This document shows, one piece after another, positions 5,201-40,009 of a stretch of DNA of 64,000 nucleotides. The DNA lies in the NCBI RefSeq assembly GCF_053078305.1, contig NZ_CP166879.1; one strand, written 5' to 3'. Numbering within the stretch: the first letter of the stretch is position 1; the number at the start of each line of letters is the position of its first letter. The translations under genes were made by a program, and so were the position numbers. Below the pieces are notes generated by a model, which saw only the letters and a program-made list of their open reading frames with translations, did no database searches and was not told where the DNA came from.

Positions 5201-5654
5201 AGAGAAGCAATGTCCCCTGCTCTTCCTGCCAGAACTGTTCTGTCAGGCCCGGGGTCAGCAACTCAACCTCAGAGGCAGTACCTGTTATCAACAGAATGCG
5301 TATTTTACGTCCCCAGAATCTGCCATACTGGCGCCGCAGAGTATGACGAATATCCTGAACAGTAACATAGCGCGGTGGCGTCTGAGCCAGTCGCTCTTCA
5401 TCGTCAGGTAACCTTTGCTCCTTCCGGGCCCGACGTCGATATGTCAGTTCCTGAACATATTTTTTCATCACAGGCAGGTAACAGACAAAGAGCAACCCCA
5501 GACTCAGCAATATCAGCAGTAGTATTTGATCCCGGCGTGTTTCTGCCCCCAGAAATGCTCCATATCGGGTTATCAGCCACCAGAGCGCAGCCACACCAAT
5601 AAATACAATCCCCGGTCGTCCAAAGCGACCAGACAGACAGGCCAGTTTATTCAT
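2265..5654 (-). CDS. tssM: type VI secretion system membrane subunit TssM (IcmF family)
   Basis: 1129 aa ORF with N-terminal transmembrane segments and IcmF-like size and architecture; T6SS context. Confidence 0.85.
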   Translation of the reverse strand: MNKLACLSGRFGRPGIVFIGVAALWWLITRYGAFLGAETRRDQILLLILLSLGLLFVCYLPVMKKYVQELTYRRRARKEQRLPDDEERLAQTPPRYVTVQDIRHTLRRQYGRFWGRKIRILLITGTASEVELLTPGLTEQFWQEEQGTLLLWGGDPSQPENADWLAALRRLRYRPVDGIVWVTSGLSETLSAPLTEDALDRVSRAVSSCCERLGWRLPLYVWSLQESPDERGRITQPVGCLLPAECSSDKLKAQLQAMLPGLVAQGIQQICCAPRYYFLLSLAERFRRNIDAVVEPLSVLLRPYRQLLLAGIVFSPATVGGERSVRHRWRMDNRWEALPETVQQLPVRLQPSRTGHHWRRSLAVMAAILMMAQGTGMVVSFLANRSLVAEVQEQIRPAQNQQLSPAERLQALLNLQKSLARLQYREEHGAPWYLRAGMNQNADLLAVVMPLYAQNAHLLLRDAAAAHLEQQLRTFIRLPPDSPQRGKMAKAAYDQLRLYLMLAQPQHMEPAWFSRTLMREWPQRDGVSAVFWQANGPTLLAYYASGIITHPQWKLTADEELVSQSRTLLLRHLGTQNSDAMLYQKMLARVAHQFADMRLTDMTGDTDVSRLFFTDEVVPGMFTRQAWEEAVLPAIDTVINERREEMDWVLTDGRQKAPSPVSPEALRQRLTTRYFADFGNAWLNFLNSLHLRKAQTLSDVTEQLTLMADVRQSPLVALMNTLAVQGRTGQPREAVTDSLVKSARNLLSQEKQPVAVPESRLHGPLATTFGPVLALMDNQNNSADMLNLQTYLTRVTQVRLRLQQIAGSSDPQAMMQMLAQTVLQGKSVDLTDTRDYGSLTAAGLGQEWYGFGQTVFVRPMEQAWQQVLTPAAESLNARWRTAVVDGWNNAFSGRYPFKNVSSDASLPLLAKYLNTDTGRIARFLQNNLSGVLHSEGSRWVPDTINTRGLTFNPAFLKAINTLSEIADVAFTTGNAGLHFELRPGTAAGVMQTTLITDNQKLIYVNQMPVWKRFTWPADTEAPGASLSWVSTQAGTRQYADLPGSWGLIRLLEMARRKAAPGVASGWSLSWQAQDGRMLNYTLRTEAGEGPLVLLKLRNFVLPEMVFELSGTSAFTGNDEDAGDSVEETD

Positions 5655-6795
5655 TCTGGTTTCCTGATGTAACAGTACTGATAAAATGTTCTTCTCCGGA
5701 TGAGAATAAAGTCAGGAGAGAATCATTACCAAGACAGACCAGATCGGCTGCCAGAGCAGTAAGCAGCCACGGAGCAGCAGGTCCCGGGATACCGCACCAT
5801 TTTTCCAGTAACATACGTCCGGACGGTTCCCATCCGGCACCATACTGGTTTCCAATAGTCATCAGCGGTGCAGCAATCTTTTCCCAGTGATAACAGTCCC
5901 CCAGTACACGAGCGGTACGACAGGCAGCTGTCTGGGTTTCAAGGAAAAGTGTGAATTCATCATTAAACTTGTTGATATCCAGCGACATCGGGCGTAGCAG
6001 ACGGGCTGGATGCGGCAGGTTATATTTTTGCGCAACATCATCGCTGGTCAACAAAAGTGCAGCCAGTCCGTCAGAGTATGCATTCCCCCCATTTAGCTGT
6101 ATTACCAGCATCAAATCCACAGTCAGCACTGGTTGTTTCAGACGCTCATCAACCCACCCCATGGAAAAGTCGGGAGTAACCTCGATATTGTCAGGAACGA
6201 CGCGTTGGGGAAATAACGCTTCCCATGCTGAAACAAAAGCAGATCTGATTTCAGAATCAGGCTGATCGGTTATCAGCGTCACATTTACAGGGAGAGCGGC
6301 AGGTAACTGACAAAATTTATCCGTTATCTCCCTTAGCAAGACACGTAAAGAGGCTTCAACCTTATGCCCACTGTCAGAAAGATAATCTATTTTCTTTACA
6401 AGGCCGTACTGCAGAGGCAATTCATCACAAAGAGTAGCTACCGTTATTTTATCAGGCAAATAAACACAACTGGCAGTAATAACAAGATACCTTTCGGCCC
6501 AGGATTCCCACTGTTTCTGAGCATACTCCCCCTCTTTTTTAAGAAACAAATGTTCATCCATCTGGTTGCTCCACTGCCAGTGTCGCAGGCAAAACAGGAA
6601 AAACCAGCACCCCGAAGGAGTCAATGCAAGCCACCAGATACTGAAATCATTTAATACTTTCACATATCCTGATGCCCGGATAATAAACAACAGAGTACCA
6701 ACAACAGCCATAAATGCCCCTGTCATAAACCACAACATCATTGATGGTTTATGAGGTAATTCTGTTGATAAAGATTTTGTTCTGCTCCATCCCAT
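5647..6795 (-). CDS. T6SS-associated membrane protein, function unknown
   Basis: 382 aa ORF with two N-terminal hydrophobic helices; ATG start confirmed; 3 nt downstream of the PAAR stop and overlapping the tssM start. No family recognised. Confidence 0.55.
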   Translation of the reverse strand: MGWSRTKSLSTELPHKPSMMLWFMTGAFMAVVGTLLFIIRASGYVKVLNDFSIWWLALTPSGCWFFLFCLRHWQWSNQMDEHLFLKKEGEYAQKQWESWAERYLVITASCVYLPDKITVATLCDELPLQYGLVKKIDYLSDSGHKVEASLRVLLREITDKFCQLPAALPVNVTLITDQPDSEIRSAFVSAWEALFPQRVVPDNIEVTPDFSMGWVDERLKQPVLTVDLMLVIQLNGGNAYSDGLAALLLTSDDVAQKYNLPHPARLLRPMSLDINKFNDEFTLFLETQTAACRTARVLGDCYHWEKIAAPLMTIGNQYGAGWEPSGRMLLEKWCGIPGPAAPWLLTALAADLVCLGNDSLLTLFSSGEEHFISTVTSGNQNE

Positions 6796-6798
6796 GGT

Positions 6799-7065
6799 TT
6801 ATCCTATTGCACATTCCGGTGCACTGGATATAACCTTACACCCACACAGACATTTACATCCATCAATCACAACAGCTCTTCCATCAGATATCCATTCAGG
6901 AGAGCCCTCCACAATAGGATTGGTACCATGTCCGGAAACAGGGCAACTAACCATATCTCCAACAAGAGCTACTTTTTTACCATCGACAATCATGGTTGAA
7001 GATGCCGAAATAACTTTACCACCATGTGTGGTATTATCACCAAGCAATACAAAACCTTTAGACAT
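6799..7065 (-). CDS. PAAR domain protein (T6SS spike tip)
   Basis: 88 aa, Gly/Cys-rich with PAAR-like repeats (VISASSTMIVDGKKVALVGDMVSCPVSGHG...GCKCLCGCKV); located downstream of vgrG/effector. Confidence 0.8.
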   Translation of the reverse strand: MSKGFVLLGDNTTHGGKVISASSTMIVDGKKVALVGDMVSCPVSGHGTNPIVEGSPEWISDGRAVVIDGCKCLCGCKVISSAPECAIG

Positions 7066-7096
7066 AAAACTCTCAAAAATAAATTTTCACTTTGAG

Positions 7097-7774
7097 TCAC
7101 CAGTTACCGTAAGGATAAGTTTTATCTTTGATAAATTCCTTAATATCTTCATCATATCCATATGTGAAATCACTTTTAGTAACCCCCTTACACATATTCA
7201 TTTTATCACCCGATACTGTAGTAATTTTAGCATCCAACTGAGGTACCACCGGATTACCGCGATCTCCCAGCCAGACTCTTACCTTCCCTTCAGGTGCCAG
7301 ACCAATAATCATCGTTGAACGATAATAGGTTTCGTTCCAGCGGTTGTCTGTGTAAGGCGTAACCATCTGCTCCCAGGTTCCTTTTTTAAAAAAAATCAGA
7401 GTTTCATAACTCTTTTTATCAATTATCGAATCCCAGCAAAAACGCAACATCAGAGGTAATGCTTTCCCCTTGTTATAATACGACTCAGTCGCGCCCAGAT
7501 GCTCATTCCAGCGCCCTACACTGACCTGACTCGGTCTTGTGGTATCAAGATACTGATAAGTCGTCTTATAACCTTCCCCGTCCACCATCAATGCCTGAGT
7601 GGCCAGCGCAGGCAGAGCCTTTGGATAAATAAAGAGAAATTTCCATTCATCATAGGGTAATTTTTTATAACCCCATTCAGTCTTATCCGAATCAGCATAC
7701 TGTGAGCTAACAGAATTACACCCAGTTAACAATGCCAATAATGGTGCGATAAAAATGATTTTATCTCTGGTCAT
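7097..7774 (-). CDS. tli1: lipoprotein, putative Tli1-type immunity protein for the adjacent lipase effector
   Basis: 225 aa; signal peptide with lipobox LLTGC; immediately downstream of the DUF2235 effector, the usual effector-immunity order. Confidence 0.55.
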   Translation of the reverse strand: MTRDKIIFIAPLLALLTGCNSVSSQYADSDKTEWGYKKLPYDEWKFLFIYPKALPALATQALMVDGEGYKTTYQYLDTTRPSQVSVGRWNEHLGATESYYNKGKALPLMLRFCWDSIIDKKSYETLIFFKKGTWEQMVTPYTDNRWNETYYRSTMIIGLAPEGKVRVWLGDRGNPVVPQLDAKITTVSGDKMNMCKGVTKSDFTYGYDEDIKEFIKDKTYPYGNW

Positions 7775-7793
7775 GTATTGTCATCCTGTAGCG

Positions 7794-9476
7794 TTAAACA
7801 CCAGACATCATAACTTTAGTATTTTTTACTGCGTTATCATTCAATCGCTGCTGATCATCCATGTACCATACAGAACGAATCCAGCGATCATTTGGTTTAT
7901 TCGGAAAAACGAACGCCTTATTACCTTTAGGACCAAAGCGATGGATAAAAATCTCTCCCGTTGTAGGATCCACCCATAAATTACCATCAGACTCAATATT
8001 CCAGTTGGCAGAACAATGGGTGTATTTTCCGATAATATACAACTCTTCCTCAGTAAAAGCCTGAGGCTCTTGCCCCAAACGTACCGCTTTTCCCTGAGCA
8101 ATGGCTTTATCAACAAAAGGAATTAATTCAGGAGATAAATTCATATCTGGATTTTTGGGGTCAATTGGAGCAAACAATACCCCTGCTTCCTGAGCAGCAT
8201 CCAGCATCACACGCAGGCAAACATTAGCCCAGTCATTAGGTACTGCCATACGCTCAAAAAATACTGCGGCTCCCACCTGCTTTTGTATCACGCCAGCCCG
8301 ACGTTGATTGCTGTTGTTCACACCTACGGAACGAATTTTGGTGGTTAGTTTTCCATGAGGCAAAATATGTTTTAAGGCTGGCAGAGTCATCAACATTTTT
8401 CTGGCTTGCTCTGCATTACGGTATACTCGCGTATCTGTTTCTCTGGTATCGTCACTGACAATTTCAAATGCCGGGCAACTCAGAAACAGACTTTCATTTT
8501 CCTGCAGAGGTGAACCTACCGGATTGTAACCACCTCCAATATCTGAATGCGCCCCTGGTAAAGCCAGTTCGGGCCACATACCTTTAATACTGTTCAGGCT
8601 GAAATTATATCGGTATTCATTCATTGCAGTAATCTGGAAAACTTTCTTCGCGATGGAAGGACGCAATTCCAGCTTTACTCCCGGGTTGCTACGTCCATTA
8701 ATATCGAAGAAATTACTGATTCCACCAATAGCTGCGACAGTATCAAAAAGCCCCAGAAAACGGACTTCACCCGAAGGTTTACCATCATAAAAATCGCCTC
8801 TGAGCCCTTTAGCAATAGCTCTGGCTATAGCAGGATCCTGTTCCATAACCCGATTAGCAAAGTGCCTTGCCGCCGCTGCTCCCCGGCTAAAACCAAAAAC
8901 ATCAAACTGGATTTTTGCGATACAAAAATCAGGATTTAAATTGAACCCCATAAATTCTGATAACGCTTGGGTGATTCGTTCCATTGCCTCGTCGGTTTTC
9001 GTCACCACACCTTCAAATATATCCAGAATACTGGTGCCTAATCCCATGCCAATGACTGAATCTGCTTCACCAGCCGCAGTCCCTATCCCGGAAATGTAAG
9101 TCTGAATTTGTGCTTCAACCTGACTTTCCAACAAAGTCTGATCTGCTACGTAAAGTGAATTTAGCCAGTGGATATTGGAATAATATCCACGATAACTGCC
9201 ATTCGAGATACTGTTCTTGTTAATTTCTTCAAGAAAGTCCTCACAGCTTTGTGCATCTTTTTGATTTACCCCCTGTCTGGCTGCACTACACTCATTAAAT
9301 TTCATCAGACGAGATGCTGTATTCTCCCGATTGTTTCCGGTACCATCGAAAAATATACCAATGGTTAAAGTCACACCCCGCGCCGGTTTTTTCTTTGCAA
9401 CAACAACTTTCCAGTCATTATGAATACTGGTTTTATGGGTGGCATCTGTTACATCATATCCCTGATATTTTGTCAT
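7794..9476 (-). CDS. tle1: T6SS phospholipase effector, Tle1 family (DUF2235 alpha/beta hydrolase)
   Basis: 560 aa; GxSxG motif GFSRG; directly downstream of vgrG with ATGA overlap; matches the vgrG-tle1-tli1 layout described for EAEC sci-1. Confidence 0.7.
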   Translation of the reverse strand: MTKYQGYDVTDATHKTSIHNDWKVVVAKKKPARGVTLTIGIFFDGTGNNRENTASRLMKFNECSAARQGVNQKDAQSCEDFLEEINKNSISNGSYRGYYSNIHWLNSLYVADQTLLESQVEAQIQTYISGIGTAAGEADSVIGMGLGTSILDIFEGVVTKTDEAMERITQALSEFMGFNLNPDFCIAKIQFDVFGFSRGAAAARHFANRVMEQDPAIARAIAKGLRGDFYDGKPSGEVRFLGLFDTVAAIGGISNFFDINGRSNPGVKLELRPSIAKKVFQITAMNEYRYNFSLNSIKGMWPELALPGAHSDIGGGYNPVGSPLQENESLFLSCPAFEIVSDDTRETDTRVYRNAEQARKMLMTLPALKHILPHGKLTTKIRSVGVNNSNQRRAGVIQKQVGAAVFFERMAVPNDWANVCLRVMLDAAQEAGVLFAPIDPKNPDMNLSPELIPFVDKAIAQGKAVRLGQEPQAFTEEELYIIGKYTHCSANWNIESDGNLWVDPTTGEIFIHRFGPKGNKAFVFPNKPNDRWIRSVWYMDDQQRLNDNAVKNTKVMMSGV

Positions 9477-11992
9477 TCTGTTTCTCCATGAATTTTTACC
9501 TTCCCAAACTCAACTTTTACTACTGACGGAATGGAGGTGTTGACTGGCGCTGTTTTACCATTTTCATCGGTGATCCCCTGTAGAATATCACCTTCAGCCG
9601 TTGTTAATCGATAAGGCGTCGAAGGTTGCGGCACTCCCGCTTCATCGGTAAGAATAAAACCGCCACCAAACCCTCGCGGCATTTCAACAGACGCAATATC
9701 AAGACTTGTTGGTCCCATCTTCTGCATATTCGTGCTTTTTAACAGGATCTGTCCCGGGCATCCCAGCTCAATATTTCCACCGCTTAGTTTGATATAAGCT
9801 CCACCACATGCCAGTATCAGTTCCTGATTAGCAGAAACAGTCACTTTGCCCTCAGAACTTTGAATATCAAGATTCTGTTGGGAACTCATTGACAAATCGT
9901 CACTTTGAGCCTGAATATTTACCCGCCCTTTTGCTGCTAACAGTTGCATCCCCTGGTTTCTGCTCAACAGGCTAACAGCACCTTCTGCTACAACTGTAAA
10001 TGACTGCCCGGCACTAATATCAGTGTTATCTCCCGACATTATGCCCACGCTTTCACTACCCGAAGCAATTCGTAACGCCCGTGCACTAACCATGCCAATC
10101 CCATCAGGAGCATGCAACAGCATTCCCGGCGCAGTGAGATCTGTTAGCGATGAATTCAACCGTTGCTGACAACTTATATCTCCCTGAGTAGCATTTGCAG
10201 CAGTTGCGGCCTTCGCCATACTTCGGGCCAGAGATAATGCCAGCTCCAGTTGGCGGATAGCTTCATTCATATCCAGCATCTTTCCTTGTGCCTGAGGCTG
10301 CATATCTGCACTGATAAATATTCCTTTTCCTCCCCGGATACTTATCCAGTCATCAGTCCTCAGCTCAGCGCCTTCTCCCCTGAGTTTCCGGGAGGCATTA
10401 ACGTTATGACCAAGATTAAGTTGTGTCTTACCGCCAAACTCGGTACTGATCTTGATATGCTCCTCACCGCGTTTGTCCTCCATCCGCAACTTGTTATTTG
10501 CCGGCGTACGGATAACATTGCGCGTACCGTTCTTATCGGTAACGTGATCAACATGACGTGAATCATGCAGGGCATGCGCGATATAGGGGCGATCCGGATC
10601 ACCTTCCTCAAAGGCAATGGCCACTTCCGTTCCCTGAATCAGCGGAAAATGAAAACCATAAGCATCACCACTGTAGGGTTTGGCCAGACGTACCGGCATG
10701 CTTTCCTGTCCCGGATTTTTATCATCACGGTCAGCATCAAATTTCACCCGGTACATACCTGATGCATCCTGCCAGGCGTAGATATCCCCTTCTTTTGCAC
10801 TGGTCACACGGGCCGTCATGGTACCGGTAACTTTCGGACGCGGCAGTAAAGGAGGACGCCAGCAGATAACTTCACTGTAAGGAACGCCCTTCAGTACAAC
10901 CTGCAGGGCATCCTTGCGACTTGCAGAAAAACCGACACAGGTAAGCAACACCGGATTGCGCAGCAGCGCAGGCAACGTCGGCGGAAGACTGTCGGTGATA
11001 GTCAGAACCTGAGCAGGTGCCAGCGTGGCGTCTGTACTGTTGCCGGTTATCCGCACCTGCTCCGCCAGATAACGTTCATGACCAAGGCGGGCATAAAAAT
11101 TGGCCGTCTCCGGCACCGGGTCGATTTTATCCCCCCGTTCCAGATGACGGAAATGGTAGTGGTACACCTCACCATAGTTAATTCCGTCACCATCACCATG
11201 CGTCATGTCTGCCGGGGCGGACTGCAACAGATATTGTGCTTCACGATGGTTATAAGCCTTTGTGGTGACACTGGCCTCTGCCACATTGTGCGTCACATTC
11301 AGCCCCCACACTGAATCCGCTCTGTTATCATTCATTCCGGACGGACTGTTTATCGCCAGCGTCTTATCAAACGTCAGCGCAGCCTGGCTGTCACCAAAAT
11401 GCACTACTTCCGTCTGCGTGTCCGGTTGCAGGGTGAAAAAATAAAAAATCCCCACTTCAGCCAGCAAACGCTGAATAAATTGCAGGTCACTTTCCTGATA
11501 CTGGTTAATTTGTTCACGCTTCGGATACGTTTTTTTGAGACGGAACTCAAACTCCCAGCCTTTCAGGCCGTGCTCCTGGAGAACCTCTGTCACCACCTCC
11601 GGCACCGATTTGTTAACGAAAAATCGGTGAGAACGATGCTGCCTGTCCAGTAGTTTAATAAATGGTTCCAGTATCACCTGGTATTTTGCCTGGTCGGCGG
11701 AGCCCGATATACGACGAAAATCTGTAATGACACCATGTACTACTTTCTGGCTCACCTGCTCCTTAAGCCCTCCCGTACCCATTGTAAATGTGGCTGATTT
11801 ACGCAGCAGCAGCCCGGCATCCAGGTCGTTGTCAGTACTGGTAAAATTGATGATGTAATAATAGGTCTGACTCATCTCCTCCCTGCCGCTGAAATGCTCA
11901 ACATCCAGTGGTGACGGGCAGGAGGGAATAATTAAATGGTAACGATTCAGGGAAGCAGAGATAGTTTTTGAAAGTGTATCTGTCAGACTCAT
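9473..11992 (-). CDS. vgrG: T6SS spike protein VgrG (TssI) with C-terminal extension
   Basis: 839 aa; VgrG-like N-terminal gp27/gp5 architecture; C-terminal tail beyond the spike core; start codon overlaps next gene. Confidence 0.9.
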   Translation of the reverse strand: MSLTDTLSKTISASLNRYHLIIPSCPSPLDVEHFSGREEMSQTYYYIINFTSTDNDLDAGLLLRKSATFTMGTGGLKEQVSQKVVHGVITDFRRISGSADQAKYQVILEPFIKLLDRQHRSHRFFVNKSVPEVVTEVLQEHGLKGWEFEFRLKKTYPKREQINQYQESDLQFIQRLLAEVGIFYFFTLQPDTQTEVVHFGDSQAALTFDKTLAINSPSGMNDNRADSVWGLNVTHNVAEASVTTKAYNHREAQYLLQSAPADMTHGDGDGINYGEVYHYHFRHLERGDKIDPVPETANFYARLGHERYLAEQVRITGNSTDATLAPAQVLTITDSLPPTLPALLRNPVLLTCVGFSASRKDALQVVLKGVPYSEVICWRPPLLPRPKVTGTMTARVTSAKEGDIYAWQDASGMYRVKFDADRDDKNPGQESMPVRLAKPYSGDAYGFHFPLIQGTEVAIAFEEGDPDRPYIAHALHDSRHVDHVTDKNGTRNVIRTPANNKLRMEDKRGEEHIKISTEFGGKTQLNLGHNVNASRKLRGEGAELRTDDWISIRGGKGIFISADMQPQAQGKMLDMNEAIRQLELALSLARSMAKAATAANATQGDISCQQRLNSSLTDLTAPGMLLHAPDGIGMVSARALRIASGSESVGIMSGDNTDISAGQSFTVVAEGAVSLLSRNQGMQLLAAKGRVNIQAQSDDLSMSSQQNLDIQSSEGKVTVSANQELILACGGAYIKLSGGNIELGCPGQILLKSTNMQKMGPTSLDIASVEMPRGFGGGFILTDEAGVPQPSTPYRLTTAEGDILQGITDENGKTAPVNTSIPSVVKVEFGKVKIHGETE

Positions 11993-12070: not shown

Positions 12071-12298
12071 TTACTGATAATCATCCCATTCATCGTAAAT
12101 ATATGCATATGCAAATCGATACATCAGATAACCGACAAAAAATAACGCAACAGAGAGCCCTCCCCACAGATATTTAAATTCAGCAGATGAGAGAAAAAAG
12201 AACCAGACTGTAAATACAATACCCGACGCACCTAACCCCATACCTGCGCCACGGATAAATCGGGAAAGCATTATAAGTAATGTTCTTTTTATCTTCAT
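12071..12298 (-). CDS. small membrane protein, unknown function
   Basis: 75 aa from the ATG at 12298, which overlaps the upstream gene stop (ATGA); two predicted hydrophobic helices. Confidence 0.4.
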   Translation of the reverse strand: MKIKRTLLIMLSRFIRGAGMGLGASGIVFTVWFFFLSSAEFKYLWGGLSVALFFVGYLMYRFAYAYIYDEWDDYQ

Positions 12299-12936
12299 AA
12301 ACCACCGAAAAAATATTCGCATATCCGGTCAAACTCAGCCGAATTTCGGTCTGCGACAATACAGGCTCGTTCAAACGGGCGCACAATATCTTCAACAAGA
12401 AAGTACAAAAGATCCAAATCCCCCTGAGCTTTCAGCTTATCATGCAACACCGGATTTCTGTCTTTCAGAAAACGGGATGTGTAAATCGCACGCGATGTCT
12501 CTGCGCCAACAGATAATAACAACCCGGCAAAACTCCCTGCAAAAAAAGCAGCCAGCCCTCTGGATACCAGAACCTCTCCCAGTTTAACCCCGGTCAATTC
12601 AGCAAATGCCATTCTACCTGCCAGATCTCCTGAAACGTTCTTCACAATGGAGCCTGTTTTTTCCATATTGATCCGGGATACAAAGTCTTCAAGACAAATA
12701 CTGATAATTTTCCCAATAATATCACGGCTGAAAATGCCTTTTTCTACCAGTCTGGCCATTCTGAATTTGTCATTCTGGTTTTCCCGCCTATGCCCGGTAT
12801 CTATAAAATCATATCCCATATAACCGAGACTGACTGGCAAAGATATGAGTCCCTTCCCGACGGCCCCCAGAAACCCATCCCCATTAATATTTACGGCCTC
12901 CAGCATATCCCGGGCAATTTCTTTAGCACTGTCCAT
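12295..12936 (-). CDS. hypothetical protein between clpV and vgrG
   Basis: 213 aa from the ATG at 12936 preceded by AGGAAA; 14-nt overlap with the clpV 3' end; no family recognised. Confidence 0.45.
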   Translation of the reverse strand: MDSAKEIARDMLEAVNINGDGFLGAVGKGLISLPVSLGYMGYDFIDTGHRRENQNDKFRMARLVEKGIFSRDIIGKIISICLEDFVSRINMEKTGSIVKNVSGDLAGRMAFAELTGVKLGEVLVSRGLAAFFAGSFAGLLLSVGAETSRAIYTSRFLKDRNPVLHDKLKAQGDLDLLYFLVEDIVRPFERACIVADRNSAEFDRICEYFFGGL

Positions 12937-30561: not shown

Positions 30562-31014
30562 CTACGTTTTATGCAGCCGCTCAGGGATGTATGTCACAAT
30601 TTTCTTTCGCCTGCTTAACCATCGTACTTCTCCTTCTCCCCATGGCTGAAGCTGTATGAGATAGTCAATAACTTTTCGACCAAAGCCTGGTTTACAACAG
30701 AAATCCAGAATCCAAATCCTTCCATCTTCATTCCATTCAGACGGATGCAACCTGAATTCTGGATCCCTGAGCAGGCGCGCTTCTGTATCAGCCTCAAGAT
30801 ATGCCCAGGTAATATACGCCAGTGGAAAACCTCGTGAATCAAACAGGAATTTAATCTGATTATGCTGTATCGCATATTCAGTCCAGTATTGAATGGTTAA
30901 CACCGGATACAGACTGTAATTACGATTGTAGAGCATACAACTGACCGCAAAACCGATCTGTTCATAAACAGTCCATTCATCTTTTCCTCTGATGGTTTCC
31001 CTTATATAAGACAT
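30562..31014 (-). CDS. mchD: microcin maturation protein MchD/MceI-like (HlyC-like acyltransferase family)
   Basis: 150 aa; position between mchC and mchE matches the H47 system; family assignment from recollection. Confidence 0.65.
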   Translation of the reverse strand: MSYIRETIRGKDEWTVYEQIGFAVSCMLYNRNYSLYPVLTIQYWTEYAIQHNQIKFLFDSRGFPLAYITWAYLEADTEARLLRDPEFRLHPSEWNEDGRIWILDFCCKPGFGRKVIDYLIQLQPWGEGEVRWLSRRKKIVTYIPERLHKT

Positions 31015-31039
31015 GATTACTATTTCCCTTATATATTTT

Positions 31040-32590
31040 TTACACTGTGTTTCTTATCGGTTCAAGATATCCAAATGCATCTCTGGAAAACTTAAGCATA
31101 AAATTTTTCATATCAGAAATTGCTTCTTGTAAAAAAAGGGGATCATCGCCATGATTATCCAGCAGGATGGCAATTTTTTCGCACATATTTTCTTTCCTCA
31201 GCTCTTCCCTGGGTTGCAGCCTTTTCATGGTATGATGTTCAATTTCTTTCAGGAGTAATGAGGCATTTATCTGACGTCTGGTACTGCCTTGCGTCAGCCA
31301 GTGGATGGCCTGGGAAAAACACTGTTGTGCAACGGTGAAATGAACATCATTCTTGATGCTACTATTCAGTGCCTGCTTTTGATTATGCCTATGATGGATT
31401 AGCGTCACAACCAACTTTTGCAATGGTGAACCATCCTGATTGACAATATCTTGGGCATGTGATTTCTCGCAGTATTGATTGAGTAATGCAACAAAACTGT
31501 TAACCAGTTCTTTCAATATATCAGGTATCTCTTTTTGTGTTATAAATTCTCCAGGAATACCCAACAGTTCTAGATAACAGTAATAACATGCTTCATGAAA
31601 AGTTTTCTGAAATATCTCCTCAACCTTCAAACGGGCTGCAAGAGTGAAGTCAGGGTCAAACATATATTTTCCGATATACAAGCAGAGATCAGACAGCCCT
31701 TGCATAAGTACCATCGGTTCTTTTGCCAGTTCAGCTAATCTTAGTTTATACCCAAAATCAGCTGGGGAATCTCCCGGAAACAGACAACTGAGTCCGTTAA
31801 AATCCATTAATCTGCCATCCATTGCAATATTAGAAGGAGAAGTTGTCAATCTCAGGAAACGTGTTCGACAAAATGCCATTTGCCAGGCCTCACGACGTGC
31901 CAGTTCACATAACCCCTCAATGCAATAAATCCGGGGATCAGTTCGTGCTTCAGCATCAATTTCTTCCGGTGGTACAGGTAGATATCCTGGCAGCTTGTGG
32001 ATCACAGATCTAACCCGACAGGCATCGTGAATTAACAGACTGGAATACTCCGGTTTTACTTGGAAGTAAGGTGCCCGTTCAAAATGCGCCGGACGAACAA
32101 CAGGCTCACGTACCAACAGGGCTCTTCGTGATTTCCTACCGGAGCGCTCAAATGCCTTTTCAGTATAGAGATCTGTAAGTAAAACCGCCCGAACCCGCAC
32201 AGCACTATAAGGTAATATTTGAGCCAGTACTTCTCCCCACAAAGCCTCATATATTGCATGAACAGCGCCGAGTGCACCATTAGAATGACGTTCGTCAGTA
32301 CCTTCGCCAACCAACGGATTACTTCCTATTCCTTTAACCTGGTAGTTACCATCAAACCCACAACGTGCACCACCTCCATTACGCTGAATACCACTGCCAC
32401 CATAGCGCTCTGCATGGAACACTTTGGCAGAAGCTGTACTGCCAGGATCGATAATATAACTGCAGGCATTTTGCAGCTCGTCTGGATTTCTGACATCCTC
32501 TGCACACCAGATTAATGAGGCCTTGATCTGCCTGGCAGTGAAAGGCACCAGGTTTTCATTCAGTTCAGAAAGTGAACACTGATGACTCAT
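31040..32590 (-). CDS. mchC: microcin maturation protein MchC/MceJ-like
   Basis: 516 aa; immediately downstream of mchB, as in the mchXIBCDEF arrangement. Confidence 0.7.
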   Translation of the reverse strand: MSHQCSLSELNENLVPFTARQIKASLIWCAEDVRNPDELQNACSYIIDPGSTASAKVFHAERYGGSGIQRNGGGARCGFDGNYQVKGIGSNPLVGEGTDERHSNGALGAVHAIYEALWGEVLAQILPYSAVRVRAVLLTDLYTEKAFERSGRKSRRALLVREPVVRPAHFERAPYFQVKPEYSSLLIHDACRVRSVIHKLPGYLPVPPEEIDAEARTDPRIYCIEGLCELARREAWQMAFCRTRFLRLTTSPSNIAMDGRLMDFNGLSCLFPGDSPADFGYKLRLAELAKEPMVLMQGLSDLCLYIGKYMFDPDFTLAARLKVEEIFQKTFHEACYYCYLELLGIPGEFITQKEIPDILKELVNSFVALLNQYCEKSHAQDIVNQDGSPLQKLVVTLIHHRHNQKQALNSSIKNDVHFTVAQQCFSQAIHWLTQGSTRRQINASLLLKEIEHHTMKRLQPREELRKENMCEKIAILLDNHGDDPLFLQEAISDMKNFMLKFSRDAFGYLEPIRNTV

Positions 32591-32861
32591 CTGGCAGTAT
32601 TCTCCGTTTCAATTTTCATAAAAGAGTGTTCATAAAAGAGCAAGTAAGTGTCCTGACAGCTTCTTCCTTATTACAGTAAAACTCTATTAATTACACATAA
32701 ATTAAAAAATTATTTATCAACGACTGTAAATCATATCTTCATCAGTAAAGTGTTGAACATAAAAACACACTTATAAATGGATCTTCTATCTGTTTTAAAC
32801 AAAAAGGATATATTTTACAGGTACTACCGAAAAAGTGCCTGTAAAATAAATAAAAATATAA

Positions 32862-33089
32862 TTAGCTACCGCCACCAGCAGAAGAACTGGCACTACCACT
32901 TCCCACGGTCGAGCCAATTGCTGTTGTCAAACCGGCAGATACGGCTCCAACTACAACCCCAAGTGGACCACCAGGTATTCCGGCGAGAGCTCCAACAATA
33001 GCTGCAGCACCTGCAGCATTAGCTGAAGTAGCTGGCGCACCTCCCGCCCCGGAAATATATCTTAACTGTGATTCTGTTATTTCTCGCAT
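32862..33089 (-). CDS. mchB: microcin H47 precursor
   Basis: 75 aa; leader MREITESQLRYISGAG; Gly/Ala-rich core; C-terminal SASSSAGGGS; matches my recollection of MchB. Confidence 0.85.
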   Translation of the reverse strand: MREITESQLRYISGAGGAPATSANAAGAAAIVGALAGIPGGPLGVVVGAVSAGLTTAIGSTVGSGSASSSAGGGS

Positions 33090-33116
33090 ATAAACTGCAT
33101 ATAAACTCCATCATAT

Positions 33117-33326
33117 TTAACTTCCGTTTTTCCAGCCTGACCAGACCAGAATCCTTCGAATCCCATGAATCAGCTCAATAAAACCAAGAAATATTATAAA
33201 GCTTAGAAAAACGTCAACATAAGAATTCCCTTCGCCAACAATCCGAAGGGATGAAAGTGAAACCAATAAGATAGTAATAGGTAAACTGAATATAGCCGTC
33301 AATTGGGACAGTTTTTTATAACTCAT
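33117..33326 (-). CDS. mchI: microcin H47 immunity protein
   Basis: 69 aa two-helix membrane peptide (MSYKKLSQLTAIFSLPITILLV...) directly upstream of mchB. Confidence 0.8.
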   Translation of the reverse strand: MSYKKLSQLTAIFSLPITILLVSLSSLRIVGEGNSYVDVFLSFIIFLGFIELIHGIRRILVWSGWKNGS

Positions 33327-33738
33327 TAATCCCTACCTGTTGCTTTATTTTCATTATGAAAAGTTACCAAATCTTAGCACCTCAGTCAGGAGAGTCAGGT
33401 CATCGATAAAGAATATTCCAGTAGAGTGGCGCTCATGATCAAAGATAACAGCAAAGTTGATGACAGCGCTGACCGACTGTCATTTACAGAAACCCTGTTT
33501 GTAGCACATTCCATCTTACCTGACCTCACCCAGACAAAGACAAAAGAGAATGATTGTTATTTACTTTTCAAAAAAAAGTGTCATATTGTCCATATAAAGT
33601 CAAGAGGTATTTTACGTTATGTCACTGATGCAATTGTTAGTCAGGATCTCATGGTTGTCGCTCATGTATAACCTGAGACTTGAACGCACACTAATAGCAC
33701 TGACGGTCATACATCGGGAAATGTGAGGAGGCATAAGA

Positions 33739-33984
33739 ATGAATTGTGATAATAATCACAGAAATGAAGAATTCATTGTTACCTTTGATAAAGGCAACAA
33801 GCAAGACAATTCAAGACGAAAACACGATAATTTTCCTATAGAGGTAGAATCCTCCGTAGAGCAGGAGACACACTGTATCACAAATAATAAGTCGGCTTCC
33901 GGTATAGTAACACATGACTATGATGCCGATTATATTTGTGGTTGTGGTGAAATTATGTGTCCTGGTTGCGGTCATGACCTATAA
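33739..33984 (+). CDS. small cysteine-rich protein, unknown function
   Basis: 81 aa; strong GAGGAGG site 8 nt upstream; C-terminal CGCGEIMCPGCGHDL cluster; lies where mchS4 is reported in the H47 system, but identity unverified. Confidence 0.45.
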   Translation: MNCDNNHRNEEFIVTFDKGNKQDNSRRKHDNFPIEVESSVEQETHCITNNKSASGIVTHDYDADYICGCGEIMCPGCGHDL

Positions 33985-34139
33985 CAAACATTTTTGCAAA
34001 CTGATACCTGATCAGGTACAAGCCTGTTGATTATTATGCTGAATATTTCATGTTATAAAACCATCGATATAAACATTAACAAGAAAAAACATATATTGTT
34101 TATCTGAACATTTATCGATGGAAAACCAAAGGGGAAAGT

Positions 34140-34574
34140 ATGTATCTTACGAAAAAGATTATAATAAGTATGATGTTTATATTACCATCTGCTGCATTTT
34201 CATCAGATCCACCTCCCCTTCAACAATCGTTAGAAAAAACAACCTATTTTTCTATAGGTATGAATGGGTTTATAGGCTATCAGAGCGAAGGGGAAAAATT
34301 ATACACACACATTCTTACATTAGATAATCCCGAAGAGATATTTAAAAATATAATAAAAAATAGAAAGTCAACTAAGGAGTCTAAAATTTATGCTGCTTGT
34401 GGGCTATATTATTTAAACGTAGAAAATATAGAGTCATTGTTTAATGAAAATGATAAACAAGAATATGTGTCTGTCTTAAGAGGGGATATTTTAACAAAAA
34501 TAAAACTGAATGATATTCTGAATTCTGTGATAATAAATGGTTGCAACACCAAATTAATATCTGAACATAAATGA
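34140..34574 (+). CDS. secreted/membrane-anchored protein, putative immunity protein for the adjacent precursor (MchS3-like)
   Basis: 144 aa with N-terminal signal/anchor; AAAGGGGAAAG upstream; 16 nt before the precursor gene; size and position fit MchS3. Confidence 0.5.
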   Translation: MYLTKKIIISMMFILPSAAFSSDPPPLQQSLEKTTYFSIGMNGFIGYQSEGEKLYTHILTLDNPEEIFKNIIKNRKSTKESKIYAACGLYYLNVENIESLFNENDKQEYVSVLRGDILTKIKLNDILNSVIINGCNTKLISEHK

Positions 34575-34590
34575 GCAGGAGGTCTTTAAA

Positions 34591-34824
34591 ATGAGAGAAA
34601 TATCAGATCACATGCTTGATTTCGTGAAAGGAGGGATGAATCTTAATGGATTACCTAGTTCTACTAATGTAATAGATCTACGAGGAAAAGATATGGGAAC
34701 ATATATTGATGCTAATGGAGCATGCTGGGCTCCGGGTACTCCATCCATCATCATGTATCCGGGGGGAAGTGGACCTTCTTATAGTATGAGTAGTTCCACA
34801 TCCAGTGCAAACAGCGGCAGTTAA
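34591..34824 (+). CDS. class IIb microcin precursor, probably microcin I47 (MchS2-like)
   Basis: 77 aa; leader MREISDHMLDFVKGG; C-terminal SSSTSSANSGS; AGGAGG upstream; terminator hairpin follows. Identity with I47 is from recollection only. Confidence 0.65.
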   Translation: MREISDHMLDFVKGGMNLNGLPSSTNVIDLRGKDMGTYIDANGACWAPGTPSIIMYPGGSGPSYSMSSSTSSANSGS

Positions 34825-34828
34825 ATAA

Positions 34829-34860
34829 ATACCCTCCGGCATGGCCGGAGGGTATTTATG
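34829..34860 (+). terminator. rho-independent terminator after the precursor gene
   Basis: Inverted repeat ACCCTCCGGC / GCCGGAGGGT with a 3-nt loop, followed by ATTTAT. Confidence 0.5.
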
Positions 34861-35112
34861 ATGTGCCTGTAAGACTCTACTTCTGTCGTCTCTTTACAAA
34901 GGCATATGATCTGTCATTTTGTACCAGACATCTTAACGAGAGCCTTTTCATATATTACTTACATACGTGAAATCTACAGTATAAAGCAAAAATTTTATTA
35001 AACCTGTTTTATATTTATCATCAATACAACAGATTTAATTCCGGAAAGTCACTCATCATCCCTTGAATGAACGTCATTTGATGTATTATTCTTACACTTG
35101 GATTAATTTAAG

Positions 35113-36387
35113 ATGATACCTATGAAAAACTATCTTTTCCAGACACCCGAAGATATTTGTGTACAGTTAAAAAAAATGACACATCCTGTCACAATAAGAA
35201 CAACAGATATTGCTAATTTCTGGCACTATCTTGAGTCAGCAACACTTCCAGTGATCACAAAAAGCACCACTACAGAAAATCGGGAGGTTACATTTCTGTG
35301 GCGCTCAGAGAAAGCACTGCAAGGCGTATATCTTCGCCTGAATCGTGTAACAGATAAAAAAGACGTCAAAAAAGGACTAATGACTCATATCCCTTCGACA
35401 GATATCTGGATGCTGACACTGGTGTTACCAGCTTCATATCGGGGCTCATACTCATTTATAGAAATTCCCACAGATATGACACAAAAAGACATATTTCAAC
35501 TAGGAAGTCGCTTCTCTCCATTACCCGGTAAATCTGATCCATTTAACAAAACAGCAGAAATAAATATACGAGGATTCGGAGAATCAGTCCTTTCTCTTGA
35601 TATGGCTCCTGAACAAAAGGAATGGGATGATACTTCCCATAAATGTACAGGTATTCTTTCAACATTACATTCCTTTGTTGCAGGATATCAACGCCGGATT
35701 CGTTTATATTTTCCCCTGAATCCAACATCAGTACCTCTTGGATTACTTGTGTTACCTGATGCTGAAACATGGTTTGACCGGATAGATATTACCCGGGCAT
35801 TAGATATGGCCATCACCACTGGTCGTATCACGCCAATGGCAATTATGGGGATAGACAATATTAATGAATCTGATCGTATGAATATACTGGGAGGCAATAA
35901 AGAACTCATCTTTGATATAGCGGAAAATCTGATACCCCAGTTATACAGAGACTATCCGGATATCGTATGGGCTGGTCGCTCTAATACTGTACTGGCCGGG
36001 CAGAGCCTCGGTGGAGTGACAGCACTGATGGCAGCTATATATGCGTCGACAACATTTGGTACAATCATTAGTCACTCACCTTCAATGTGGTGGAACCCTG
36101 ACCAGGGCAGCCCGATCTTGTTTACTGAGAATAATACCTCCTGGGTAAGTGAGCAGATACTTTCAGCGCCTCCGAAAGATGTAAATATTCGACTTGGAGT
36201 CGGTTCTTTAGAAGGTACAACCGTCTCACATGTTCAGCGATTGCATCATTCGTTAATCGCAGCTGGTTTGGAAAGTAACCTCACTGTCTATACCGGTGGT
36301 CACGATTATGCTTGGTGGCGCGGAGCAATTATTGATGAATTAGCAAATTATAATTGCAGGAAGGTATCAAATAATAACTCTGTGTAA
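35113..36387 (+). CDS. mchS1: enterobactin/salmochelin esterase family protein (IroD/Fes-like; MchS1/McmK)
   Basis: 424 aa; serine hydrolase motif GQSLGG; role in processing the siderophore moiety of class IIb microcins is established for this family. Confidence 0.8.
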   Translation: MIPMKNYLFQTPEDICVQLKKMTHPVTIRTTDIANFWHYLESATLPVITKSTTTENREVTFLWRSEKALQGVYLRLNRVTDKKDVKKGLMTHIPSTDIWMLTLVLPASYRGSYSFIEIPTDMTQKDIFQLGSRFSPLPGKSDPFNKTAEINIRGFGESVLSLDMAPEQKEWDDTSHKCTGILSTLHSFVAGYQRRIRLYFPLNPTSVPLGLLVLPDAETWFDRIDITRALDMAITTGRITPMAIMGIDNINESDRMNILGGNKELIFDIAENLIPQLYRDYPDIVWAGRSNTVLAGQSLGGVTALMAAIYASTTFGTIISHSPSMWWNPDQGSPILFTENNTSWVSEQILSAPPKDVNIRLGVGSLEGTTVSHVQRLHHSLIAAGLESNLTVYTGGHDYAWWRGAIIDELANYNCRKVSNNNSV

Positions 36388-36456
36388 AATATCTTTTTAT
36401 CGTCCGATAACTCTTTCTGCAATATTATTATGGGAGACTATCTCATTTATTTAGTG

Positions 36457-36492
36457 ATGTCCTTCATTTATGTGATGAAGGACATTATATTA
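36457..36492. terminator. hairpin between convergent mchS1 and mchA
   Basis: Inverted repeat ATGTCCTTCAT / ATGAAGGACAT with a 7-nt loop. Confidence 0.35.
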
Positions 36493-36528
36493 CTCATAAC
36501 ATTTCTCGTTGAAAATTTCAGCAATACG

Positions 36529-37653
36529 CTACAATTGTTTCCCGTTGTTTTTTAATTTTCTCATCAAAACCTCTGCAATCTCTGCAGGACTGGGTTGTTC
36601 AGCCATTTCAGCGGCTACCTGATCTGAACAGAAGCGTAGTGAATCATCATAAAGCAGGCGATTTACCAAATCACTAGTCAGTCCATGCTTGTCCGGAATA
36701 ATCCCACACCCACGCTTCGCAACAATTTCTGCATTAACAGAGCGATCTGCACCTTCGCCAAACACAATCTGTGGTATTCCACTATACAGCGCTGTCAGGG
36801 TATTACCTGCGCCACCGTGATGAATAAATCCATCAGCTCCATTAAGGAATACACCCATAGGTATCCAGTCAACCAGACGTACATTTGATGGTAGTTTTCG
36901 TAAACCAGTACGAGCATTTATTGCAAGTTGCAAAATGATATCAGCATCAACTTCATTTGCAGAATCCATAACCCATGAAATCAGCTCCAGACCATCAACC
37001 ATTGGTTTTACAGTGCCAAGGCTGATAAGTAAACGTTTCCGATCAGAATCCCTGTCCCACCATGTTTCCTTTACAGCACCTCCGTTATAAGGAATATATC
37101 TCATTGAGATAACCGGTTCTCCAGCATTTTTAAGAATGCTCATACTTGGGGGAGCAACATCAATCCATGCTAAATCACATAGTGGACCGCTGACTCCATG
37201 CCGCCTGTAAGCATTGCTTAAAGAACGGTTTAACATCTGAATATGGGCAGATGTATGCGCGAATCCAACAGCCAGCATCACTGAAGGAATTCTATATTTA
37301 GCAGCAACCAATGGGCCTGCCGGACCAAGAGGGGGATAGACTATTAAATCTGGCCTCCATTTTCCTGCAAAATTGATGAGGTTATCTGCCATTTCATCGC
37401 TAAAAAAAGAGAAATGACCAATAATATTACTTTTTTTCCTCAACTCTTCCTGATGGCGATATCCAGCCTCTGAATCTAAACCTGGAACTGCATCAAAAAC
37501 AACCAGTCCAGCTTCTGCTGCTTTATTCGCGAATTTGCCAGCGCTACTAATTACTACATCATGTCCAATTACACGAAAGGCCTGAGCCAGAGAAATCAAT
37601 GGGTATAACAAACCGTACAGCGGTGGGCCAATAAAAAGAATACGTTTTCGCAT
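36529..37653 (-). CDS. mchA: IroB-like glycosyltransferase (MchA/McmL)
   Basis: 374 aa GT-B type glycosyltransferase with C-terminal HHGGAGNT motif; convergent with the esterase gene. Confidence 0.8.
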   Translation of the reverse strand: MRKRILFIGPPLYGLLYPLISLAQAFRVIGHDVVISSAGKFANKAAEAGLVVFDAVPGLDSEAGYRHQEELRKKSNIIGHFSFFSDEMADNLINFAGKWRPDLIVYPPLGPAGPLVAAKYRIPSVMLAVGFAHTSAHIQMLNRSLSNAYRRHGVSGPLCDLAWIDVAPPSMSILKNAGEPVISMRYIPYNGGAVKETWWDRDSDRKRLLISLGTVKPMVDGLELISWVMDSANEVDADIILQLAINARTGLRKLPSNVRLVDWIPMGVFLNGADGFIHHGGAGNTLTALYSGIPQIVFGEGADRSVNAEIVAKRGCGIIPDKHGLTSDLVNRLLYDDSLRFCSDQVAAEMAEQPSPAEIAEVLMRKLKNNGKQL

Positions 37654-39531: not shown

Positions 39532-40009
39532 AATAAATCACCTTACAGTTACAACAGGTCAAAAACCGCTGTAGCCAGAGTTACGCTGGCCTGATGCTTT
39601 AGCATCGGGCTTCGTCAAATAATCCAGAATCCAGACGTGCCAATAAGCGCTGATACTGCTCAGGGAAATCAGGAGCATTAATATCCTGGATGTCACGTCC
39701 ATTAGCAGGGAAATGAACAATGCAGCCCCCTGGATTAACTATGCAGAAATCATCCTGAGGCACTGATAAATACGGAGAGGACTCTCGCGTATGGTTGATT
39801 GACACCACAGTGCGAATTCGGCGGATGCGAGATCACGGTACGATTCCGCACCACACTACCAATCAATACCCCGGGTTTTATTCAGGTAAGCAGGACTGCG
39901 GATATCCGGTGTCGCGCCGTTGTGTCACGAACGGGGTGGGTGCGAAACACCGGATAAAATACAGGTTGGCAATACCTCTGAACGCCCTGCGCAGAGCGGG
40001 GATTTCGGA

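Follow-up and report, generated by a model that had tools for sequence, protein, structure and literature searches.

We analyzed a stretch of 64,000 nucleotides (nt) from contig NZ_CP166879.1 (NCBI RefSeq assembly GCF_053078305.1), hereafter called the window, and asked what is encoded by the minus-strand genes located between positions 6799 and 11992. An earlier note on this DNA had read them as vgrG, a lipase effector gene, a lipoprotein immunity gene, and a PAAR gene of a type VI secretion system (T6SS), in the Tle1/Tli1 arrangement known from the sci-1 cluster of enteroaggregative Escherichia coli (EAEC). That reading was borne out gene by gene, and we conclude that the locus is almost certainly the vgrG-tle1-tli1-PAAR spike-cargo operon of an E. 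coli T6SS-1 of the sci-1 type, in the form of an allelic variant of the operon of EAEC strain 042. The order of the genes, their domains and motifs, and the near-identity of their products to the characterized 042 proteins were all directly observed.

Gene order and relation to EAEC 042

Four consecutive intact open reading frames (ORFs) on the minus strand span positions 6799 to 11992, each exactly where the earlier note had placed it. They correspond to vgrG (9473 to 11992, 839 amino acids [aa]), tle1 (7794 to 9476, 560 aa), tli1 (7097 to 7774, 225 aa), and a PAAR gene (6799 to 7065, 88 aa). The vgrG stop codon and the tle1 start codon are joined in an ATGA overlap, and short spacers separate tle1 from tli1 (19 nt), tli1 from the PAAR gene (31 nt), and the PAAR gene from the next gene (3 nt). 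The arrangement looks like a single operon that runs on into a 382-aa ORF and tssM, and our scan for promoter-like and terminator-like sites revealed no enrichment over shuffled sequence. T6SS core genes (tssA, tssM, clpV, hcp, tagL, tssL, tssK, and tssC) were found around the module.

The closest characterized system is the sci-1/T6SS-1 cluster of EAEC 042 (EC042_4533, EC042_4534, EC042_4535, and EC042_4537; PDB entries 6SJL, 6SK0, and 6SKI), which has the same gene order and flanking core genes and shares the catalytic triad, the lipobox, and the zinc ligands with the window. The whole cluster is about 95% identical between the two strains, and the identity reaches 99.1% for the flanking TssM and 99.6% for TssA. 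The differences reside in the allele of the VgrG base, in two patches of Tle1, in the number of tli1 genes (EC042_4535 and EC042_4536 in 042, a single copy in the window), and in the slot upstream of vgrG, which encodes a 188-aa protein and a DUF7480 lipoprotein in 042 and an Ssp6-like/Sip6-like pair in the window.

The 382-aa protein (5647 to 6795, minus strand) lies between the PAAR protein and TssM, overlaps the start of tssM, and has an N-terminal hydrophobic segment. With its counterpart in 042, presumably EC042_4538, it shares 97.6% identity; we found no mention of EC042_4538 in the literature. The window protein gave no match in Pfam or NCBIfam.

The Tle1 effector

We searched the 560-aa protein for DUF2235, the lipase family to which the earlier note had assigned it. 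It matched PF09994 (T6SS_Tle1-like_cat, formerly DUF2235) with 58.4 bits, against a gathering cutoff of 27 (E = 9.2e-16). The NCBIfam scan returned no match for Tle1, Tli1, or the Ssp6-like ORF; this is not evidence against membership, since the names given to these proteins in RefSeq must derive from another rule. The protein aligned end to end with EC042_4534 (PDB 6SJL chain D) at 94.5% identity, which agrees with the assignment to a lipase effector of the Tle1-EAEC type and from which we infer that the window Tle1 is a phospholipase A1/A2 cargo effector with periplasmic toxicity.

The sequence contains a single GxSxG motif, the GFSRG that had been pointed out beforehand, which forms the nucleophile elbow (aa 195 to 199, positions 8880 to 8894) with Ser197 as the catalytic residue. 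Ser197, Asp245, and His310 have been cited as the catalytic triad of Tle1-EAEC, the S197A substitution abolishing activity (bioRxiv 10.1101/2024.03.05.583533), and all three residues were found in the window protein. The numbering of the triad was taken from that preprint and then checked independently by family conservation, in an alignment that combined the window Tle1 and 40 representatives (26 to 51% identity) chosen from 2,358 relatives. Across these 41 sequences, Gly195, Gly199, and the residues between them were invariant, as was His310, and Asp245 was conserved in at least 90% of the sequences. We detected no signal peptide, transmembrane segment, or hydrophobic segment in Tle1; as expected of a T6SS cargo effector, the gene adjoins vgrG within the T6SS cluster and the product lacks a Sec signal.

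Tle1 of Pseudomonas aeruginosa (PDB 4O5P), like other DUF2235 Tle1 proteins, has the DUF2235 alpha/beta-hydrolase core with a GxSxG motif in common with the window protein, and it has a Ser-Asp-His triad (bioRxiv 10.64898/2025.12.24.696360). Its similarity to the window Tle1 is limited to a local match (E = 1.4e-7, residues 186 to 252), its accessory domains differ, and, according to the title of the 2025 preprint, it relies on an adaptor protein instead of direct docking on a TTR domain.

The VgrG spike and its docking extension

VgrG has the architecture of a T6SS spike, with a gp27-like base, a gp5 OB-fold and beta-helix, a DUF2345 domain, and a C-terminal extension. It matched the Pfam profiles Phage_GPD (E = 3.5e-52), T6SS_Vgr (E = 1.9e-30), DUF2345 (E = 1e-44), and Phage_base_V, and the NCBIfam profile TIGR01646 (334.8 bits, E = 9.5e-100). 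This combination of a gp27/gp5 core with DUF2345 is that of a VgrG1-EAEC-type spike. Overall, the protein is 85.5% identical to VgrG of EAEC 042 (PDB 6SJL_A), but the identity is unevenly distributed, amounting to about 72% in the base and to about 98.6% over aa 401 to 839.

The 78 residues that follow DUF2345 (aa 762 to 839, positions 9476 to 9709, minus strand) are covered by no Pfam model. In 042, this TTR extension binds the N-terminal strand of Tle1 (PMC10715212; PMC9860674). The last 139 residues of the window VgrG (701 to 839) are 100% identical to the 042 chain in 6SJL_A, and residues 1 to 82 of the window Tle1 are identical to those of 042 Tle1 in 6SJL_D. The N-terminal segment of Tle1 that complements the TTR fold (first 26 aa, positions 9399 to 9476; role from PMC10715212) falls within this identical part. 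By identity to the solved complex, the VgrG extension is thus predicted to be the TTR-like docking domain for Tle1, in agreement with the docking site that had been proposed for it.

The Tli1 lipoprotein and the PAAR protein

Tli1 belongs to the DUF2931 family (PF11153, 99.8 bits for a cutoff of 22.2, E = 2e-28). Its N terminus carries the lipobox LTGC (residues 16 to 19, positions 7718 to 7729), with Cys19 followed by Asn20 at position +2; the match to the profile LPAM_1 was weak (17 bits, under the cutoff of 20). Under the Lol rule, a residue other than Asp at position +2 fits sorting to the outer membrane, and Asn20 would fit such a location. We found neither a solved structure of Tli1 nor a solved relative. 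The protein is 96.0% identical to the proximal EC042_4535 and 91.6% identical to the distal EC042_4536, and the lipobox together with the similarity to Tli1-EAEC EC042_4535 upholds the proposal that this lipoprotein is the putative immunity protein of Tle1. Tli1 of 042 is an outer-membrane lipoprotein that binds Tle1 1:1 at nanomolar affinity and inhibits it (PMC10715212, PMC6730261, PMC9860674).

The PAAR protein matched PF05488 (E = 8e-24) over residues 8 to 80 of 88, without any extension or toxin domain, and is therefore a class-1 tip protein that stands alone, as the earlier note had said of its PAAR protein. At 100% identity to EC042_4537, a protein demonstrated to cap the VgrG-Tle1 complex (PMC10715212), it contains all four zinc ligands reported in the same study (His14, Cys41, His46, and Cys74).

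Proposed function of the module

The mechanism of the EAEC system has been published, including the phospholipase A1 (PLA1) and A2 (PLA2) activities, the periplasmic action, the direct loading on the VgrG TTR domain, and the capping by PAAR with its requirement for assembly (PMC10715212, PMC6730261, PMC9860674). By analogy with that work, we propose that activity, loading, delivery, and immunity are the same for the window allele. The N-terminal strand of each Tle1 would complete the fold of the C-terminal TTR extension of VgrG, and the zinc-binding PAAR protein would cap the VgrG beta-prism and be needed for the assembly of baseplate and sheath. Contraction of the sheath would then fire the loaded spike into a neighboring Gram-negative cell, where Tle1 would cleave membrane phospholipids from the periplasm via Ser197, Asp245, and His310, acting as a PLA1 and, more weakly, as a PLA2. 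Protection of the producing cells and their kin would come from the outer-membrane lipoprotein Tli1, which would bind Tle1 1:1 and block it.

We considered whether Tle1 might instead be aimed mainly at eukaryotic cells, as a trans-kingdom effector, since ∼50% of the RAW264.7 macrophages were lysed by purified Tle1-EAEC, an effect that Tli1 prevented (PMC9860674). An antibacterial use is indicated by the presence of a dedicated immunity lipoprotein of the outer membrane and by the phenotype documented for EAEC. The island also bears other weapons against bacteria, namely, microcin H47 and the Ssp6-like effector (see below), and antibacterial and anti-eukaryotic roles are compatible with each other. 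We regard a mainly eukaryotic target as highly unlikely.

Several observations weigh against the assignment to a functional 042-type module, although none contradicts it. First, the function of the window allele is predicted from near-identity to the 042 proteins. Second, Tle1 differs from that of 042 at 31 positions, 23 of which are clustered in two tracts of about 100 nt; the second of these patches reads LSPEL in the window, versus LPxEL in 042 and at least 90% of the relatives. Third, the gp27-like base of VgrG is only about 72% identical to that of 042. Extra contacts of Tle1 at the VgrG base have been reported (PMC10715212; PMC9860674), so the contact surface on the base may differ from that of 042. 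Fourth, the genes tssE, tssF, tssG, and tssJ are situated outside the window, past its left edge, and the window sequence alone does not show how complete the machine is.

These points bear on the alternative that this strain has the module but keeps it silent or cannot deliver it, owing to a repressed or incomplete cluster or to a VgrG base incompatible with loading. Part of the T6SS core indeed falls outside the window, the base diverges from the characterized one, and the sequence offers no readable expression signal. However, the four ORFs are intact and every catalytic and zinc-binding residue is in place. Moreover, the exact VgrG sequence occurs on 611 contigs and the exact Tle1 sequence on 304, which implies that these genes are maintained, and in near-identical genomes remaining core genes are found beside the module (tssF and tssG in O22:H8 strain 154, tssF in 042). 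We therefore consider a silent or undeliverable module very improbable and retain the interpretation as an allelic variant of the 042 operon.

Prevalence of the module and relation to other clusters

By megablast, we found the module in 72 of 5,426 complete E. coli genomes. RefSeq already labels the proteins "T6SS effector phospholipase Tle1-EAEC" and Tli1-EAEC, and besides VgrG and Tle1, the exact Tli1 sequence is public on 27 contigs. The module is thus already known: its biochemistry, cryo-electron microscopy structures, and PAAR function are published, and the window allele is named in RefSeq. With the mechanism published, exact sequences public, and the annotation in RefSeq, our finding is the correct recognition of a known system, and it carries little weight as a discovery, Tle1/Tli1 being among the best characterized T6SS cargo modules.

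At the nucleotide level, the whole cluster is closest to T6SS-1 clusters of the type found in E. coli that produce Shiga toxin (STEC), with 98.6 to 98.9% identity to O22:H8 strain 154 (NZ_CP067426.1) and strain 04-00955 (NZ_CP035498.1), the latter giving the value of 98.9%. Like the window, these clusters encode an 839-aa VgrG and the Ssp6-like pair. The cluster of strain 154 has been described bioinformatically (bioRxiv 10.1101/2024.03.05.583533); it has a single tli1 like the window, but patch 1 of its Tle1 is of the 042 type and the C terminus of its Tli1 is H-type (cassette types are defined below), whereas strain 04-00955 has two H-type tli1 genes versus the single S-type gene of the window. 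The same vgrG-tle-tli-PAAR cassette logic and cluster position are seen in other E. coli T6SS-1 modules, VgrG-Tle3-Tli3 of adherent-invasive E. coli LF82 and Tle4 of avian pathogenic E. coli, which differ in that their lipase and immunity families are unlike those of the window.

Allelic mosaic and immunity specificity

A nucleotide comparison in bins of 90 nt revealed that the divergence from 042 is mosaic and sharp edged. Over nt 1 to 1170 of vgrG, which encode the gp27-like base (about aa 1 to 390, positions 10823 to 11992, minus strand), we counted 15 to 37 mismatches per bin (mean of about 27, roughly 28 to 30%), compared to 0 to 5 in the downstream bins, the rest of the gene diverging by 3% or less. 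The breakpoint, at about codon 390, has the sharp edge of a recombination event, and the divergent base runs without interruption into the swapped effector slot upstream. The two hypervariable tracts of tle1 encode patch 1 (residues 107 to 125, positions 9102 to 9158) and patch 2 (residues 436 to 455, positions 8112 to 8171), both on the minus strand. Across strains, each patch exists in two alleles, which assort independently.

Tli1 also varies, at its C terminus (residues ∼201 to 219, positions 7118 to 7174, minus strand), where we found two alternative cassettes, termed S-type (SDFTYGYDEDIKEF…) and H-type (HPDGYVYYGDTPDF…). The single tli1 of the window is S-type and the single tli1 of O22:H8 strain 154 is H-type. 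Among the strains with two copies, the types are H (proximal) and S (distal) in strain 1105, H and H in 04-00955, and S (proximal) and H (distal) in 042. The cassettes have thus been shuffled between proximal and distal copies in different strains. We rejected the idea that the single tli1 of the window arose simply by collapse of the two genes of 04-00955, because neither of them has an S-type C terminus; the collapse of an arrangement like that of strain 1105 would fit, with either direction of change possible.

Could this variation mean that the window Tle1/Tli1 pair belongs to a distinct compatibility group, such that the window allele would kill strains with the 042 allele? The Tle1 differences are confined to two short tracts with ∼25% nt divergence in a gene that is otherwise 97 to 99% identical, Tli1 has two alternative C-terminal cassettes, and many strains retain two tli1 copies of differing type. 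On the other hand, we tested the co-variation of Tli1 cassettes and Tle1 patches in five strains and rejected it, as the cassette type tracked neither patch. In particular, the window carries an A/A Tle1 with an S-type Tli1 alone and 04-00955 carries the same A/A Tle1 with H-type copies alone; self-immunity of the two strains would require that the same Tle1 be neutralized by either cassette. This lack of linkage makes a straightforward switch of specificity less likely. Patch 1 is also poorly conserved throughout the family, and patch 2 is mostly variable as well, save for the near-invariant columns of Pro448 and Leu451 that it spans; most variable patch positions therefore fit relaxed constraint.

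Taken together, we find it unlikely that the window pair forms a distinct compatibility group. We attribute the same low probability to the broader proposal that the Tle1 patches and the Tli1 cassette reflect an ongoing diversification of specificity, without cross-immunity to 042, in which the second tli1 that many strains retain would serve as immunity stockpiled against rival alleles and would have been lost in the window. Our preferred interpretation remains that of an allelic variant of the 042 operon.

A further cargo module upstream of vgrG

The earlier note missed a gene pair upstream of vgrG, and the cargo region begins further upstream than position 11992. A 213-aa protein (12295 to 12936, minus strand) and a 75-aa protein (12071 to 12298, minus strand) are encoded by ORFs with an ATGA stop/start overlap. 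The first is a homolog of Ssp6, with 42% identity over 207 aa (E = 8e-57) to a 215-aa Ssp6 ortholog from Serratia bockelmannii, and is predicted to be a pore-forming effector of that family. The second contains a hydrophobic segment and shows weak similarity to Sip6 (22% identity, E = 0.003); this Sip6-like small membrane protein is a candidate for the immunity protein that counteracts the Ssp6-like effector. Full-length homology to Ssp6 and a small membrane ORF directly downstream are both features of the Ssp6 family, for which cation-selective pores and depolarization of target cells have been published (PMC6889166). With this pair, the cargo region comprises two effector-immunity modules.

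The Ssp6 reference was obtained by scanning contigs for an exact match to an ssp6 primer from the supplementary table of PMC6889166. The scan yielded a single match, exact over 26 nt, in S. bockelmannii and not in S. marcescens Db10, the source of Ssp6. The 215-aa protein encoded at this match contains all the primer-encoded peptides (MAKG…, QEMANA, VDVDKVKR, and …EKVSK), and the 67-aa ORF that follows its gene ends with KFHDGV, as in Sip6.

Across the slot between clpV and vgrG, the window could not be aligned with 042, whose gene pair there is unrelated; the DUF7480 protein of that pair is annotated as "T6SS immunity periplasmic lipoprotein." The family of the 213-aa protein is spread across Enterobacterales, and in Enterobacter and Yersinia it likewise lies between clpV and vgrG, regardless of the cargo located after vgrG. 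In E. coli, we found the Ssp6-like/Sip6-like pair in 35 of the 5,426 complete genomes (megablast). The label "Ssp6 family T6SS pore-forming effector" was present in 1 of the 12 RefSeq records listed, and most of those examined were named hypothetical, an annotation of the pair in E. coli records that could be corrected.

The surrounding island

A complete-looking microcin H47 cluster (∼27040 to 37650) occupies a low-GC stretch adjoining the T6SS cluster. It contains mchF, an mchE-like gene of the HlyD family, mchB, mchI, mchS3, a glycosyltransferase gene, and a gene for an esterase-like hydrolase, and is 99.9% identical to that of strain 04-00955. With Tle1, the Ssp6-like pore former, and microcin H47, the strain would have no fewer than three weapons against other bacteria on a single island.

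Positions 40000 to 64000 are occupied by the remnant of a CP4-type island, which extends up to cadC. It contains insertion sequence (IS) elements, a fragment of an integrase gene, genes for antirestriction and JAB-domain proteins, YfjI, a GTPase, Ag43, and the toxin-antitoxin pair CbtA/YeeU. Because this remnant with its integrase fragment adjoins the T6SS and microcin region and ends at cadC, we propose that the whole region is island borne. We found no tRNA genes within the window.

At the opposite end, positions 1 to 660 match a 230-aa hypothetical gene located between tssA and tssF in 042 and have a low GC content (0.43). This gene is absent from O22:H8 strain 154, whose alignment with the window begins at position 659.

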